DNA of 64,000 nucleotides. Origin: Proteobacteria bacterium UBA5122. Lineage in GTDB: Bacteria > Pseudomonadota > Gammaproteobacteria > Tenderiales > Tenderiaceae. The position numbers are program-made. The first letter of the stretch is position 1, and every line of letters begins with the position of its first letter. Positions 53,801 through 62,800 of the stretch are shown piece by piece. The DNA is taken from NCBI GenBank assembly GCA_002415485.1, contig DHYU01000007.1:4726-68725 (forward strand), written 5' to 3'.

Positions 53801-56800
53801 CTGGTTTCCATCAATACGCGTGGTTTGTCGGCGGCATGGGCAGGCATCACAGCCACACAGGCCAGGATCAAGGTAGAAAAAAACTTACGCATCGGTCGCT
53901 TCCTTCGGTTATATAAAACGGGCGCCCATCATAGCCGCTTCGCCAGGGCAGATAAAGGTGGGTTTGGAACTGTCCCCGCGGTTGGCTACAATACCGCCCA
54001 TCCACTACCGGGACCCCGTGTCCGATCTGAGAAGCCCGAATGCTAAAACTCTACAACAACCTGAGTCGTCAAAAAGAAGAATTCACCCCCATTGAGCCGG
54101 GCAAGGTCGGCATGTATGTCTGCGGCATGACCGTCTATGACTACTGCCACGTCGGTCACGCCCGCGTGCTGGTGGTGTTTGACATGATCACCCGTTACCT
54201 GCGCCACAGCGGTTATGCGGTGAACTACGTGCGCAACATCACCGATATCGACGACAAGATCATCAAGCGCGCCAACGAAAACGGCGAACCGATGCAGGCG
54301 CTGACCGATCGTTTTATCGCCGCCATGCACGAAGACTCGGCCGCGCTCGGCGTCTTGCCGCCGGACCAGGAGCCACGTGCCACCACATCGATGGACCTGA
54401 TCCTCAACATGATCCAGACCCTGATCGACAAGGGTTACGCCTATGCCGCCAACAATGGTGACGTGTATTACGACGTCAGCAAGTTCGAGGGTTACGGCAA
54501 ACTGTCGGGCAAAAAACTCGAAGACCTGCGCGCCGGTGAGCGTGTCGCGGTCGACGAGTCCAAAGATGACCCGCTCGACTTCGTGTTGTGGAAGGCCGCC
54601 AAAGCCGGCGAGCCCTACTGGGAATCACCATGGGGCCATGGCCGTCCCGGCTGGCACATCGAATGTTCCGCGATGTCGACCCACTGCCTCGGTCACTCAT
54701 TCGATATCCACGGCGGCGGTCTCGACCTGCAATTCCCGCATCACGAAAACGAGATCGCGCAATCAGAAGGCGCCACCGGCTGCAAGTTCGTGAACTACTG
54801 GATCCACAACGGTTTCGTGCAGATCAACGAAGAGAAGATGTCGAAGTCGCTCGGCAACTTCTTCACGCTGCGCGAAGTGCTGAAGAGTTATGCGCCCGAG
54901 GTCATGCGTTATTTCATCCTCGCCAGCCACTATCGCAGCCCGTTGAATTATTCCGATCAAAACCTCGATAGCGCCAAGTCTGCGCTGGAGCGTTTTTACA
55001 CTGCATTGCGCGATGTCAACGCCGCCGCAACCGATGGCGCCGGTGATTACGAAACACGTTTTCGCACCGCGATGGATGATGACTTCAACACCGCCGAGGC
55101 GATGGCGATCCTGTTTGAACTGGCCAATGCATTGAACAAGGCCAAGGCAGACAACAATGCCGAACAGGCCGCGCAACTGGCCGGTCAATTGCGTTACCTG
55201 GGCGGCGTGTTAGGCTTATTGCAGGACGATGCCGATAGCTTCCTCAAGGGCGGCGCGGGTGACGACGGCGATGCCGAGATCGATGCCCTGGTCGCGCAGC
55301 GCAATCAGGCGAAAAAGGATAAACAGTGGGCAGAGGCCGATCGTATCCGTGATGAACTTCAGGCACGGGGCATCGTCCTAGAAGACGGAGCCGGCGGTAC
55401 ACGCTGGCGTAGGGCATAAACGAGGTTAAATATGAAAAAGATACTTTCTGGTTTGGCATTGGGCGCAGCCGCATTGGCCTTGTCGGCCTGCTCAGCAGGT
55501 GATGCAGAACTGGCCTGGGAGAAGGTCAATTCTGGTGCGTTGTTGATCGATGTGCGCACGCTGGGTGAATTCAATGAAGGCCATCTGCCGGGGGCAAGGT
55601 TGATCCCGATTACGGAACTGGAAAACCGCCTGGCGGAACTCGGCGACGACAAGAACAAACCGATCGTGGTCTACTGCAAATCGGGTGTGCGCTCCGGCCG
55701 CGCCGAAGAATTGCTTGAGGCCAAGGGCTTTACCGATGTCACCAATGGTGGCGGCTACATGGCCATGAAGTCGGTCAAACCCTAAGCGTTTTATCCCTCG
55801 TTCCCACGCTCCGGCGTGGGAACGCATCATCACCGACGGAGGACACCGTGCTCGATATCCTGATCATCGAAGACGACTCCGACCTGTCGGCCAATCTCTA
55901 CGACTACCTTGAGGCCAAAGGCCACCGCGCCGATGCCGCGGGCGATGGCGTCACCGGTCTGCACCTGGCGGTGAGCAACGATTACGACGTGATCGTGATG
56001 GACATCAACATGCCCGGCATGGACGGCCTCACCGTCTGTCGCAAACTGCGCCAAGAGGCCGGTAAACAAACGCCGGTGTTGATGTTGACCGCACGCGACA
56101 CGCTCAACGACAAGCTCGCGGGTTTTGAACACGGCGCCGACGATTATCTAATCAAACCCTTTGCGCTGCAGGAGTTGCTGGCGCGGCTGTTGGCGCTGAG
56201 CAAACGTGGCCACGTTAAAGAAAGCACCGTACTGCAGGTCAGCGACCTGAGCTTCAACAGCAAGACCTTTGAGGTCAAACGCGGTGAGCAGGTCTTGAGC
56301 CTGACCCCCACCGGCCTGAAGATCCTCGAACTGTTGCTGCGCAACAGCCCCAACGTGGTGACGCGGCAGCAAATCGAAAATGCATTGTGGGCTGGCACGC
56401 CGCCCGACAGTGATTCGATCCGCGCCCACATGCACACGCTGCGCAGCGTGGTCGACAAACCGTTTAACAGCGCGCTGATCCAAACCGTTCACGGCATCGG
56501 CTTCAAACTGGTCGCCGCCTGATGTCGTTCAATCAAAGCCTCAAGCGGCGCATCACCTATTCGTTTTTGTTCTTCGGTGCGTTTATCAGTGCGGTCATTG
56601 CCAGCGGTATCTATTTCGCGCTGGAGGATATCGAAACCGAGGTCATCGAAAACACGCTCAAGGAAGAGATGCAGTACCTCAAGCGTTCCGGCGCAGCGCA
56701 GTTGGGCTTTGAAGAACAGATCAGCGCCGGGCTTACCCGTTATGTCGTGCGCAGCGGTGACGAGGCGCGTCTGCCCGAGCTGTTGCGCGAACTCGCGACC

Positions 56801-59800: not shown

Positions 59801-62800
59801 GAAGTCCTCATCCACGGCAATCATTTCCAGGGTTATCTGAATCAACGCTCAGAAGATGACGGCGGCTGGCTGGCCACCGGCGACCTTGGTTATCTCGATG
59901 AGGACGGTTATCTCTACCTCACCGGGCGCAAGAAAAACTGCTTTATCACCAGCTACGGTCGCAACGTCGCCCCTGAATGGATCGAACGTGAACTGCTGAT
60001 CTCACCGGCCATCCTTCAGGCCGTGGTGTTTGGCGAGACACGGCCATTCAACGTGGCGTTGATCGTGCGTCGCGATGGATTCCTCAACGCAGATATCGAC
60101 GCCGCCATCCTGCGCGCCAATCAACAACTGCCAGACTACGCCCGCATCGGCGCGTGGGTAGAGGCTGATGCGGCCATGACCCTGCACAACGGACTCTACA
60201 CCGCCACCGGCCGCCCACGTCGGCAACAGATCCGGCAGGTATATGGCGAGATCATCGAACAGTGTTACCAGCATCCCAATCAAACCACTTGTGGGGAAAC
60301 ATCCCAAAGGAGCGCCCATGTCATTCTTTAATCAACTCATTGCCGCAACCGGTGACGCACGCCAGGAGATGTTGGCCATTCCACAACTACAGGCCGGCGG
60401 ACAGGGGCAGATCAGCCTCGACACCTACATCGCCTTCCTCACCGAGGCCTACCATCACGTCAAACACACAGTGCCGCTGTTGATGGCCTGTGGCTCACGC
60501 CTGCTGCGTGAACCACGCTGGATGCAAGAGGCCATCGTCGAATACATCGACGAAGAGAAGGGCCACGAGATGTGGATCCTGAACGACATCAAGATCTGCG
60601 GCGGCGATGACCATGCTGTGCGTTATGGTCAACCCAAACCCGCCACCGAATTGATGACGGCCTATGCCTACCACACCATCGAACGCATCAACCCCGTGGC
60701 CTTCTTCGGCATGGTGCTGGTGCTCGAAGGCACCAGCATCAACATGGCCACCCAGGCCGCCGCCGCGCTCAAAGAAAACCTGCACCTGCCAAACAACGCC
60801 TTTAGTTATCTCACCTCGCACGGCGCGCTCGACATCGAACACATGGGCTTCTTCGAAGGCCTGATGAACAAGATCGAAGACGAACAAACCCAACAAGACA
60901 TCATCCACTGCGCGCGCATGATGTATCGCCTCTATGGCGACATCTTCCGCAGCCTGCCGATGTAGGAGGTCCACATGAACTTACGCGATAAAAACATCTT
61001 GCTCACCGGCGCCTCAGGCGGTATCGGGCGTGAAGTTGCACTGGCACTGGCCAAGGCCGGGGCACGCATCGGTCTGCTCGGCCGACGCGAGGCACCGCTG
61101 CAACAACTGCAGGCCGAGATCGCAGCCTTGAATGGTGTGTCGATGCCGATCGTCGCCGACCTCAGCGACAGCGCGCAACGTGCCCACGCCGTAAAAATAA
61201 TGGAACAACACATCGGCCCCATCGACGTGCTGATCAACAACGCAGGCCTGGTCGACTTTCACGACTTCAGCGAACAATCGCCTGCCATCATCGAACGCAT
61301 GATCGAGACCAACGTGCTCGCACCCATGCTGCTCACCCACAGTGTATTGCCCAACATGCTGCAACGGCGCAGTGGCCGCATCGTCAACATCGGCTCCACC
61401 TTTGGCAGCATCGGCTTTGCCTATTTCGCCGCCTATGCCAGCAGCAAATTCGCCGTGCGCGGATTTTCCGAATCCTTGCGTCGTGAACTGAAGGGCAGTG
61501 GGGTTGGCGTCAGTTATCTCGCGCCACGCGCCGTTAAAACCAGCGCCAACAGCGAGGCCGTCTATCGCATGGCCGCCGCCACCAGGATGAACATGGACGA
61601 ACCGGTGGATGTCGCGCGCTTCATCGTGCAATCGATCAAACACGACAAAGACATCGCCTATTTCGGCTGGCCGGAAAAACTCTTCGTCCGCATCAACGCG
61701 CTGTTGCCGGGCCTGGTCGATGCCGCCGTGCGCAAACAAACCCAGATCATGGCCCGCTTTGCCCCCAAGGCCCATTGAACATCTGCATCCACAGGAGCTT
61801 TATCATGAAAACCAATCATCTCATCGTCGCCGCGCTCTTCACCGCCAGCATGGTGCTGAGCGGCACCAGTCACGCCATCGGCGAGGCCGCGCAGACACTG
61901 CAGGCCGGCTGGGACATCGTCAAATACCAGACCCCAGACAAAGACAAAGAAAAGGCCTACGAACAACTCGCCAAACAGGCCAAAGACCTCGTTGCACTAC
62001 ACCCCAACGACGCCGAAGTCCTCACCTGGGAGGCCATCATCCTCAGCAGTTACGCCGGTGAAAAAGGCGGCCTCGGCGCCTTGGGTTTGGTGAAACAAGC
62101 CAAGGCCGAATTGGAAAAGGCCGAAAAGATCGACCCCAAGGTATTAAACGGCGCCGTCTACACCACCCTCGGCAGCCTGTATTACCAGGTGCCCGGCTGG
62201 CCGCTCGGCTTCGGTGACGACGACAAGGCCGAAAGCTATCTGAAAAAAGGCCTCGCCCTCGCGCCCAACGATATCGATGCCAACTACTTCTACGGCGACT
62301 TCCTGCTGGATGACGGTCGTTATGCAGAAGCCATCCCTGTGTTGGAAAAGGCCCTCGCCGCAGCCCCGAGGGCAGGGCGGGATGTTGCCGACAGCGGGCG
62401 TAAACAAGAGATTCAACACAAACTGGACGCTGCCAAAAGTAAAATTTAACTCGGCTAGTTAATCGAATTACGAATTAAACCATGGTTCATGCACCATGGT
62501 TTTTTTTGCCCATAAATATCTCATCAACGAATTGGGGCGAGTCTAGTGCAGAGAGCAATAATGGGTAGAATATAAAGTAGCAATATCGGCATATTCTCTT
62601 TAATTCGCCACGGTCAACTTATGATTGCTTGTATATCCAATATGTTTATGATGGTTGCATAAGCCGTGATAAAAGAGCGTTATGGGGTGGGGATGAACAA
62701 AAGTAAAATGTCTGAGCGTGATGTTTGCACCAAATTCATCACTCCTGCGCTACAGCAGGCAGGCTGGGATATTCAAACCCAAGTGCGAGAAGAAGTCTCC

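Follow-up and report, generated by a model that had tools for sequence, protein, structure and literature searches.

The stretch of DNA analyzed here is a window of 64,000 nucleotides from Proteobacteria bacterium UBA5122 (contig DHYU01000007.1), and positions 55848 to 62510 of it, on the plus strand, form a single unit of regulation and biosynthesis, in which a two-component system (TCS) is followed by an intact, divergent copy of the five-gene delta-VPH/dth cassette. We propose, with a probability of roughly 55%, that the unit is a TCS-induced operon whose product is an N-acylated amphiphile that exits the cytoplasm. Direct evidence was obtained for the gene content, the co-conservation of the genes, the fold similarities of their products, the conservation of metal ligands and operator, and the operon boundaries. 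An initial annotation, made from the sequence by itself, had described a response regulator (RR) and sensor histidine kinase (HK) pair followed by five packed or overlapping plus-strand genes, and the open reading frame (ORF) map of the window recovers all seven genes at the coordinates then claimed. The genes and their associated elements are as follows.

55848-56522, plus strand: OmpR-family RR, 224 aa, with a GTG start and a GGAGG ribosome-binding site (RBS); Response_reg at 3.8e-30, Trans_reg_C at 1.5e-17
56522-57817, plus strand: sensor HK, 431 aa, from Pfam HAMP, HisKA, and HATPase_c and from hydropathy
57867-57906, plus strand: four direct heptamer repeats with an 11-bp period, a candidate RR operator placed where a -35 element would sit
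57913-57922, plus strand: -10-like element TTGCTACCTT, a conserved alignment block with the near-clade consensus GTTGCTACATTG
57978-58757, plus strand: T_hemolysin-family protein (delta-VPH/Dth), 259 aa, with an ATG start and an AGGAGA RBS; PF12261
58754-60331, plus strand: ANL-superfamily acyl-activating enzyme (the ligase), 525 aa; AMP-binding at 2e-60 and AMP-binding_C_3
60318-60965, plus strand: heme-oxygenase-like dimetal oxidase/oxygenase (HDO), 215 aa, with an ATG start; PF14518 at 2.7e-32
60975-61778, plus strand: classical short-chain dehydrogenase/reductase (SDR), 267 aa; adh_short at 3.9e-55, NCBIfam PRK09072
61805-62449, plus strand: tetratricopeptide-repeat (TPR) protein with the Sec signal peptide MKTNHLIVAALFTASMVLSGTSHA, 214 aa, with an ATG start; TPR families
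62477-62510, plus strand: intrinsic terminator, a 10-bp stem AAACCATGGT/ACCATGGTTT followed by TTTTTT

The gaps among the five cassette genes are -4, -14, +9, and +26 nt, in keeping with the tight packing first described. A good RBS had been credited to each gene, and a GGAGG/AGGAG-type site does precede every cassette gene but the ligase, which instead overlaps T_hemolysin by ATGA and is translationally coupled to it. Start codons were refined for the T_hemolysin, HDO, and TPR genes, and the first two refined starts equal public gene calls for identical proteins (in the uncultured gammaproteobacterial metagenome-assembled genome GCA_002448895.1 and in metagenome contigs). Profile searches against Pfam and NCBIfam uphold the family assignments of all genes, including T_hemolysin, the assignment on which the initial annotation had staked its proposal, and the Sec signal peptide together with the TPR families bears out its secreted TPR protein.

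That proposal had equally been made to depend on the genes being kept together in relatives, and they are. A scan of a genome collection seeded on T_hemolysin gave 46 loci, 45 of them usable, all from uncultured Gammaproteobacteria (Chromatiales, Sedimenticolaceae, Ca. Thiodiazotropha, Ca. Tenderia, Acidiferrobacterales, and others). The scan relied on one search pattern from a narrow alignment, so the family is under-sampled; a broader T_hemolysin alignment was too diverse to yield a search pattern, and tblastn against annotated plasmids and chromids was added. Using the window proteins in tblastn, the order T_hemolysin-ligase-HDO-SDR is found to be kept in 40 to 43 of the 45 loci, and the loci from which a gene was not recovered include short contigs ending near the cassette, such as L023 and L037. 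The TPR gene is present in 23 of the 45 and an RR/HK pair in about 30. When all neighboring ORFs were clustered, no other neighbor, transporters included, was shared by more than 6 of the 45 loci, and the conserved unit is therefore the cassette plus a TCS.

The same arrangement can be found well beyond these loci. Five-gene cassettes are annotated on replicons of Variovorax, V. parahaemolyticus (a plasmid), Citrobacter, Pseudoalteromonas, Pantoea, Alteromonas, Salinivibrio, and Novosphingobium, so that the cassette spans alpha-, beta-, and gammaproteobacteria, with free-living sulfur oxidizers and symbionts among its hosts. For each of 24 HDO orthologues on plasmids or chromids (48 to 59% identical), the record also matches T_hemolysin, and in all 22 cross-checked cases the T_hemolysin gene is found upstream of the HDO, at a distance of about 2 kb. 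In Variovorax, the Vibrio plasmid, and Citrobacter, the fifth gene is labeled 'hypothetical' but encodes a TPR protein, which in two of the three has a weak TatT match under the cut-off; a Pfam scan gave no match for the fifth gene of Pseudoalteromonas. In E. coli genomes only IS26 ends were matched, and the cassette is absent there at megablast level. A carrier protein was sought in the longer HDO-SDR gap of Thiodiazotropha-type loci, where there is no plus-strand ORF of at least 70 aa, and a small Acinetobacter ORF considered as a carrier-protein candidate is a fragment of the ligase.

The cluster is thus not singular but is the widespread delta-VPH/dth cassette of Vibrio, a connection that the initial annotation missed, as it also missed that the regulators belong to TCS families of the iron/cation-sensing type. 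The first gene of this cassette has been known since 1990, or for about 35 years, and the VCA1111 of V. cholerae virulence-gene surveys is presumably dth. The Vibrio region (VP1729-VP1735 in V. parahaemolyticus; VCA1111, VCA1110, and the RR VCA1105 in V. cholerae) shares with the window the Pfam family of the first gene and a TCS nearby. There, VP1729 is delta-VPH, VP1731 a redox enzyme, and VP1735 a TCS gene (PMC10469919), while VCA1110, 'DthC', is the ligase beside the delta-thermostable hemolysin (PMC12208996) and VCA1105 is a response regulator (PMC4441509). The plasmid copy in V. parahaemolyticus has the same order as the window, namely T_hemolysin, AMP-ligase, iron-containing redox enzyme, SDR, and TPR. 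Sequence identity between Vibrio and window is about 35% for T_hemolysin and about 52% for the HDO. The window differs in its TCS, which is of another family and lies upstream, and in its operator, which consists of four CTTRACG repeats rather than a TTAAG-type box. The cassette has therefore often been annotated already, and the copy described here is a regulatory variant of it, with a different upstream TCS and a four-repeat CTTRACG operator. A search of open-access papers and preprints found no characterized pathway of this composition, which agrees with the initial annotation, and no report of a cassette product, of a LuxI/FeeM fold, or of a link to a BqsR/PmrA-type operator.

Important clues to the chemistry of the cassette come from its first protein, which is predicted from its modeled structure to be a LuxI/FeeM-fold acyltransferase and not a toxin. 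Its match to PF12261 is nearly full length (5.4e-62, 209.1 bits against a cut-off of 27, profile positions 6-172 of 174), and a profile of its relatives run against the database gives a family of 2268 clusters at 50% identity. The window protein has neither a signal peptide nor a transmembrane (TM) segment. An AlphaFold model built on 31 homologues (pLDDT 84.9, pTM 0.82) has an alpha/beta, GNAT-like topology, and the top 12 PDB matches found with Foldseek are RpaI, LasI, MesI, BjaI, TofI, and EsaI (E 3e-6 to 2.5e-5, probability 1.00), with TM-scores that are moderate at 0.40 to 0.48 normalized to the query (TMq) and 0.51 to 0.65 normalized to the target (TMt). The best of these are the CoA-dependent N-acyl-homoserine lactone (AHL) synthases RpaI, MesI, and BjaI, followed by LasI, TofI, and EsaI, which depend on acyl carrier protein (ACP), and by FeeM, whose 2g0b chains match at E 3e-5 to 3e-4 and TMt 0.63 to 0.70; for the best matches as a set, FeeM included, E runs from 3e-6 to 4e-5 and TMt from 0.51 to 0.70. 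Ordinary GNAT acetyltransferases rank below the AHL synthases and FeeM. The GNAT-like fold suggested by the initial annotation is thus backed by a confident model, and the likeness of T_hemolysin to LuxI, FeeM, and GNAT proteins is one of predicted fold only. Within the alignment and the model, Glu112 is invariant and belongs to predicted beta4, while the predicted beta4-alpha3 junction holds a conserved loop rich in Gly, GGGA(K/R). In GNAT proteins this junction binds the pyrophosphate of CoA, and the loop would therefore indicate an acyl-CoA donor, making acyl-CoA the probable donor for T_hemolysin by analogy.

Comparison with the two best-matching groups is instructive. The CoA-dependent AHL synthases RpaI, BjaI, and MesI are the closest structural matches and follow a shared logic, in which a transferase is paired with an acid-activating ligase. 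However, the window protein has no detectable sequence similarity to them and no Autoind_synth profile match, no LuxR-type gene occurs at the window locus or among the conserved neighbors, and the HDO, SDR, and TPR genes of the window have no counterpart in these systems. FeeM-type N-acyl amino acid synthases share the fold (2g0b) and the combination of a small GNAT-like N-acyltransferase with an ANL ligase; the PEP-CTERM/exosortase-associated FeeM-type set is likewise paired with an AMP-forming ligase (TIGR03098). Here the differences are that the window T_hemolysin is not a member at the sequence level, that the window ligase scores 126 bits against the TIGR03098 cut-off of 592, and that there is neither an ACP nor an exosortase context at the window cassette. 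FeeM-type enzymes make amphiphilic products that can lyse erythrocytes, a property that would account for the name of the T_hemolysin family; a hemolytic product is likewise why N-acyl amino acid synthases have been labeled 'hemolysins' in annotations.

The name itself raises the question of whether T_hemolysin could be a genuine protein hemolysin or virulence factor with functionally unrelated neighbors. The Pfam name goes back to historical reports of hemolysis by delta-VPH cloned from V. parahaemolyticus and V. cholerae; the clones were hemolytic in lysate and supernatant alike (summarised in PMC4046660). As the protein carries no export signal, this hemolysis would suit a surfactant product better than a secreted toxin. 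The window protein also lacks any amphipathic pore-forming domain, its model being that of a compact cytoplasmic GNAT-like protein; its gene is translationally coupled to that of a ligase; and it is syntenic with three enzymes across alpha-, beta-, and gammaproteobacteria. A toxin therefore fits the data poorly, and we consider it extremely unlikely.

The ligase is a recognizable acyl-activating enzyme. Its closest solved relatives in a sequence search of the PDB are MenE (1e-33), an oxalyl-CoA synthetase, FadD13, and a feruloyl-CoA synthetase, and its A3 motif is present as YTSGTTGDPKGV, conserved at residues 162-173, compared with (T/S)SGTTGxPKG. At the A10 position, aligned by eye, the sequence reads TGRxRR (window 60212-60223, ligase residues 487-490), with Arg487 found in 39 of 40 aligned cassette ligases and a gap in the remaining one.

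The third enzyme, the HDO, matches PF14518 (Haem_oxygenas_2) at 112 bits against a cut-off of 28.9 and is unusually conserved, with 61 to 80% identity over the best 120 database matches. Residues E79/E80, H83, E137, H168, D172, and H175 show no variation across 43 syntenic orthologues and 24 database homologues, the motif AYHHVKHT is likewise invariant, and judging from sequence conservation the enzyme keeps a complete His3/carboxylate3 metal site that includes HxxxDxxH; the equivalence of these ligands to those of UndA, CADD, and SznF was drawn from the pattern of motifs. An AlphaFold model (pLDDT 90.3) shows a helical, heme-oxygenase-like fold whose matches are 3dde (TM-score 0.87), CADD (0.85), and lauric-acid-bound UndA (0.75). 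Among sequence relatives in the PDB, 3dde, of unknown function, is the only clear one, CADD being weak (E 4e-3 with a profile). The HDO shares with the diiron oxidases UndA, CADD, BesC, and SznF the seven-helix heme-oxygenase-like fold seen in its model and, from its sequence pattern, the putative 3-His/3-carboxylate site with HxxxDxxH, but it differs from them as a distinct subfamily that is tied to the T_hemolysin cassette and sometimes fused to the ligase. Such a fusion is found in Novosphingobium pentaromativorans pLA3 (L061 7519-9555), where ligase and HDO form one 678-aa protein (AMP-binding, AMP-binding_C_3, and Haem_oxygenas_2), and the two enzymes can therefore be taken to act on the same molecule. 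Several Pseudoalteromonas records annotate the HDO region as 'AMP-binding protein'. Literature matches to a P. aeruginosa 'iron-containing redox enzyme' were set aside, as they refer to PA3518/PA3519 and not to the delta-VPH/dth cassette; we take PA3518 and PA3519 to be fluopsin C genes.

The SDR scores 186.8 bits for adh_short and 308 bits for PRK09072, over the cut-off of 238, and keeps TGASGGIG, Ser141, and Tyr154-x3-Lys158. In the TPR protein, the motif LGSLYYQVPGWPxGFGD is invariant in the alignment. The sterol-binding BstC structure 7t1s matches part of this protein at 4e-7, and the Novosphingobium orthologue is annotated as TatT family, its TAtT score of 26.8 bits falling just over the Pfam cut-off. 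For the window protein itself, the relation to TatT and BstC is one of resemblance, not membership.

Variant cassettes offer another view of which functions matter. In Streptomyces, a TauD/TfdA dioxygenase and a major facilitator superfamily transporter come after the T_hemolysin-ligase pair, with ketosynthases alongside, and in Acinetobacter haemolyticus the pair is followed by TauD and an SDR. The Serratia 39006 operon or1352-5 (TauD, ligase, T_hemolysin, and Bcr/CflA efflux) is the locus most strongly controlled by RsmA (PMC4046660). An O2-activating iron enzyme is thus always present in the cassettes, its family being swappable, and the TPR protein is replaced by efflux pumps in variants. 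The exchange of HDO for TauD and of TPR for efflux is the pattern expected of a tailored and exported small molecule.

The cassette can also respond as a unit. In P. alcaligenes AVO110, the counterparts of the ligase, HDO, SDR, and TPR genes are induced 38- to 390-fold together with an RR gene in fungal-exudate medium (PMC8304167), which supports the co-regulation expected from the initial annotation. A mutant of the ligase ('fadD') is impaired in the same medium (PMC8304167). These results, along with the resemblance of the ligase to acyl-CoA synthetases and the altered pattern of odd-chain fatty acid elongation in a V. cholerae vca1110 mutant (PMC12208996), would suit a catabolic function, in which the cassette serves the inducible uptake and activation of exogenous fatty or aromatic acids, the 'beta-oxidation cluster' of the AVO110 authors. 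However, genes for an acyl-CoA dehydrogenase, a hydratase, and a thiolase are all missing from the conserved unit, beta-oxidation has no place for a LuxI/FeeM-fold transferase or a secreted TPR protein, and the efflux pumps and ketosynthases adjoining variant cassettes are typical of biosynthesis. Catabolism thus matches the data poorly, and we regard it as very unlikely.

In the window, the promoter and the TCS point to dedicated control of the cassette. The 160-nt gap between HK and T_hemolysin holds CTTAACG at 57867 and CTTGACG at 57878, 57889, and 57900, an array of four CTTRACG units that agrees with the repeat array first noticed beside the TCS. Three consecutive units are expected 0.00 times in sequence shuffles, and the array occurs once in the 64-kb window, with no second operator copy upstream of the RR or elsewhere in it; autoregulation of the TCS through the same operator was accordingly considered and rejected. 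The region between HK and T_hemolysin has no sigma-70 consensus promoter, and a near-clade alignment reveals a conserved TTGCTAC(A/C)TT block downstream of the repeats. This layout would be the usual one for an activator-dependent promoter of the OmpR/PhoB class, with the repeats as the candidate RR operator. The best NCBIfam match of the RR is the CopR/CusR-type TIGR01387 (193 bits, under the cut-off of 279). In the HK, TM segments at about residues 11-35 and 130-160 enclose a periplasmic loop of some 95 aa that begins with EDIETE directly after the first TM segment (TM1), an ExxE motif without the Arg or His of RExxE/HExxE.

Near-clade relatives of the window preserve this control region. 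All four repeats are kept in register at six of six near-clade loci (L004-L009). An RR/HK pair lies upstream of the cassette in L004 and L006-L008, the RRs being 66 to 79% identical to that of the window, and the kinases of L004, L007, and L008 have a sensor domain 40 to 43% identical to that of the window HK, with EDIE just after TM1. In L005 and L009 there is no RR/HK within range, L005 being cut by a contig end. At L004 4957-9947, about 5 kb has been inserted between HK and T_hemolysin, with the four-repeat operator still directly upstream of T_hemolysin. In the distant clade, by contrast, the TCS lies downstream of the cassette, with PmrA/QseB-like RRs and QseC/PmrB-like HKs (all under curated cut-offs), and the HK sensor domain is unrelated to that of the window and begins HEVEE. 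The operator there is TTAAG-N6-TTAAG, typically 60 to 68 nt before the start codon, and it is also found before the cassette in Pseudoalteromonas, Alteromonas, and Salinivibrio, with degenerate TTAAG-type boxes in Variovorax, the Vibrio plasmid, and Citrobacter. Of 42 loci, 33 (6 near-clade and 27 distant-clade) match a relaxed repeat pattern, TT[AG]A[CG]-N6, with the repeats set at a constant distance from the start codon, compared with 0.9% of control windows. Operator conservation and TCS adjacency across loci thus lend sequence-level support to the earlier suggestion of dedicated regulation through the TCS and the repeats. In L037 and L044, CTTTACA/TTTTACA-like units and then TTAAG-N6-TTAAG stand in tandem upstream of T_hemolysin, which suggests dual control or an intermediate between the operator types.

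The operator of the relatives connects the cassette to iron sensing. In P. aeruginosa, experiments have defined TTAAG(N)6TTAAG as the BqsR box (PMC4358008), and the kinase of BqsR senses Fe(II) through a periplasmic RExxE, as Salmonella PmrB uses HExxE for Fe(III) (PMC4358008, PMC13522522). BqsRS (CarRS) of P. aeruginosa and PmrAB of Salmonella are iron-sensing TCSs that control envelope and cation-stress genes. Like the window system with its candidate operator, they are OmpR-family TCSs acting on direct repeats spaced by 11 bp and overlapping the -35 position, and relatives of the cassette, though not the window, carry the exact BqsR box together with PmrA/QseB-like RRs and kinases that have HExxE after TM1. 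The window TCS differs in standing outside that subfamily, in its half-site (CTTRACG four times rather than TTAAG-N6-TTAAG), and in an HK whose EDIE has no Arg or His.

These regulatory data bear on two further explanations, both of which are variants of the same biosynthetic idea. One is a cell-cell signaling module, in which T_hemolysin and the ligase make an AHL-like or other N-acyl signal, the HDO and SDR add hydroxy or oxo groups, and the adjacent kinase is the receptor in an auto-inducing loop, perhaps with the periplasmic TPR protein as its ligand-presenting partner. The CoA-dependent AHL synthases at the top of the fold search would suit such a module, as would the translational coupling of a CoA-ligase-type enzyme to T_hemolysin, the co-induction of the RR with the cassette in AVO110, and the adjacency of TCS and cassette, seen in varying positions and orientations not only in about 30 of the 45 loci but also in several cultured genomes. 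However, besides the missing Autoind_synth match and the lack of a LuxR-type receptor nearby, two unrelated sensor domains serve one cassette, which is hard to square with a dedicated receptor; the distant-clade operator is the Fe(II)-sensing BqsR box and the kinases there have HExxE-type motifs, which argues for an environmental cue; and some cassettes have no adjacent TCS. We thus find a signaling module unlikely.

The other is a pathway of iron or metal homeostasis making a metal-binding metabolite, for instance a lipophilic hydroxamate-type metallophore, that the TPR protein handles in the periplasm; a possible route would be N-oxygenation of an amine by the HDO followed by N-acylation. 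Among HDOs, SznF, FlcD, and FlcE (fluopsin) carry out N-oxygenation or serve metallophore pathways, which counts in favor of this route. Iron- or redox-related neighbors do occur in cultured genomes: a cupredoxin and an FTR1 permease beside the TCS in Alteromonas, a cupredoxin in Pseudoalteromonas, a VIT-family protein and cytochrome b in Pantoea, Salinivibrio, and the Vibrio plasmid, and extracytoplasmic function (ECF) sigma, FecR, and TonB-dependent receptor genes near the Novosphingobium cassette. The Fe(II)-responsive BqsR box of the relatives and the ExxE-type motifs that follow TM1 in both kinase types point the same way. Yet such neighbors are not conserved across the 45 loci and none is found in the window, the cassette includes neither a TonB receptor nor a siderophore-type exporter, the window RR and HK fall under the curated cut-off of every metal-sensor family, and the ability of TauD to replace the HDO argues for generic C-H oxidation over specific N-oxygenation. 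A metallophore is, on balance, about as improbable as the signaling module.

Two of these neighborhoods can be described further. On Alteromonas macleodii pBGP9 (L060 1-6770), the genes upstream of the cassette on the same strand encode an RR, an HK, a cupredoxin, an FTR1 iron permease, a GT2 enzyme, a VTT/DedA protein, and a GT39 (ArnT-like) protein, ArnT-like glycosyltransferases being found beside the Alteromonas cassette; this set looks like a module of the PmrAB kind, one that would combine iron sensing with envelope modification. Downstream of the Novosphingobium cassette on pLA3 are genes for a methyltransferase, an ECF sigma factor, FecR, and a TonB-dependent receptor.

For the operon proposed at the outset, one that makes and releases an N-acylated amphiphile, the following pathway can be drawn. 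The periplasm-facing kinase would detect an envelope signal, possibly a metal or a cation, and the phosphorylated RR would bind the four CTTRACG repeats, giving a single transcript that spans T_hemolysin through the TPR gene and stops at the terminator beyond it. The ANL ligase would activate a carboxylic acid in the cytoplasm, probably a fatty or otherwise hydrophobic one and most likely as a CoA thioester, and T_hemolysin would pass the acyl group on to an amine, with an amino acid or S-adenosylmethionine as the acceptor. Oxidative tailoring of the substrate or the product would fall to the dimetal HDO and to the SDR, which depends on NAD(P). The amphiphile would then exit the cytoplasm, and the periplasmic TatT/BstC-like TPR protein could bind or traffic it. 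In this scheme, we infer that the donor is acyl-CoA and that N-acylation takes place, and the sequence of the steps, the part played by the TPR protein in export and lipid binding, and the nature of the signal are inferred as well.

Several observations weigh against this pathway and must be set beside it. T_hemolysin has no sequence match in the PDB (single sequence at E<=1, profile at E<=10), no credible Pfam family other than T_hemolysin was found for 31 members at E<=10, Autoind_synth included, and the TMq of its model to LuxI and FeeM proteins is only moderate at about 0.48. The Arg in place of the catalytic A10 Lys may mean that the chemistry of the ligase is atypical, or may be a family-specific solution. 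The cassette contains neither a carrier protein nor an inner-membrane exporter, and the window TPR protein scores below both relevant cut-offs (22.3 bits against 26.5 for Pfam TAtT; 2.9e-10 and 40 bits against 350 for NCBIfam BstC). The unrelated sensor domains of the near and distant clades suggest that the signal may differ by lineage. The authors of the AVO110 study read its cluster as beta-oxidation (PMC8304167), and the literature searched contains no product, substrate, or activity for any cassette member. A broader claim, that the T_hemolysin family is not a toxin but the synthase of an undescribed class of N-acylated metabolites (AHL-like or lipo-amino acid) that are built with a dedicated acyl-activating enzyme, tailored by the HDO as a new and highly conserved subfamily of dimetal oxygenases, switched on across alpha-, beta-, and gammaproteobacteria by iron- or cation-sensing TCSs, and handled by the TPR protein as a periplasmic lipid chaperone, is put forward only tentatively.

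The cassette is of interest for several reasons. T_hemolysin genes are routinely scored as hemolysin virulence factors in surveys of Vibrio, Aeromonas, and Shewanella, a practice that would be misleading if the acyltransferase reading is true. The cassette HDO is a very conserved oxygenase from a superfamily that has repeatedly yielded new chemistry. Furthermore, a compact operator with a sensor kinase forms a testable circuit, one in which the BqsR box of the relatives links iron or cation sensing to a lipid or signal, and the presence of the cassette in V. cholerae, V. parahaemolyticus, and Pseudoalteromonas provides tractable hosts.

The surroundings of the operon can be described briefly. 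Directly upstream of the RR, at 55432-55785, lies a small rhodanese that is PspE-like (under the NCBIfam cut-off) and carries a signal peptide of the lipoprotein type (LSAC); in relatives it does not accompany the cassette. Farther upstream, inspection of the translations shows a PAS-containing protein of the methyl-accepting chemotaxis type at 48481-50073 and a response-regulator receiver fused to an apparent HD-GYP-type domain at 50115-51230, which could be a cyclic di-GMP signaling pair. Right after the terminator, a type I restriction-modification system (HsdR, HsdM, HsdS) begins at about 62693 (window 62693-64000 and L001 5583-11227). The GC content of this DNA is about 0.50 to 0.52, compared with 0.58 to 0.62 in the operon, and the segment is therefore probably a horizontally acquired island.

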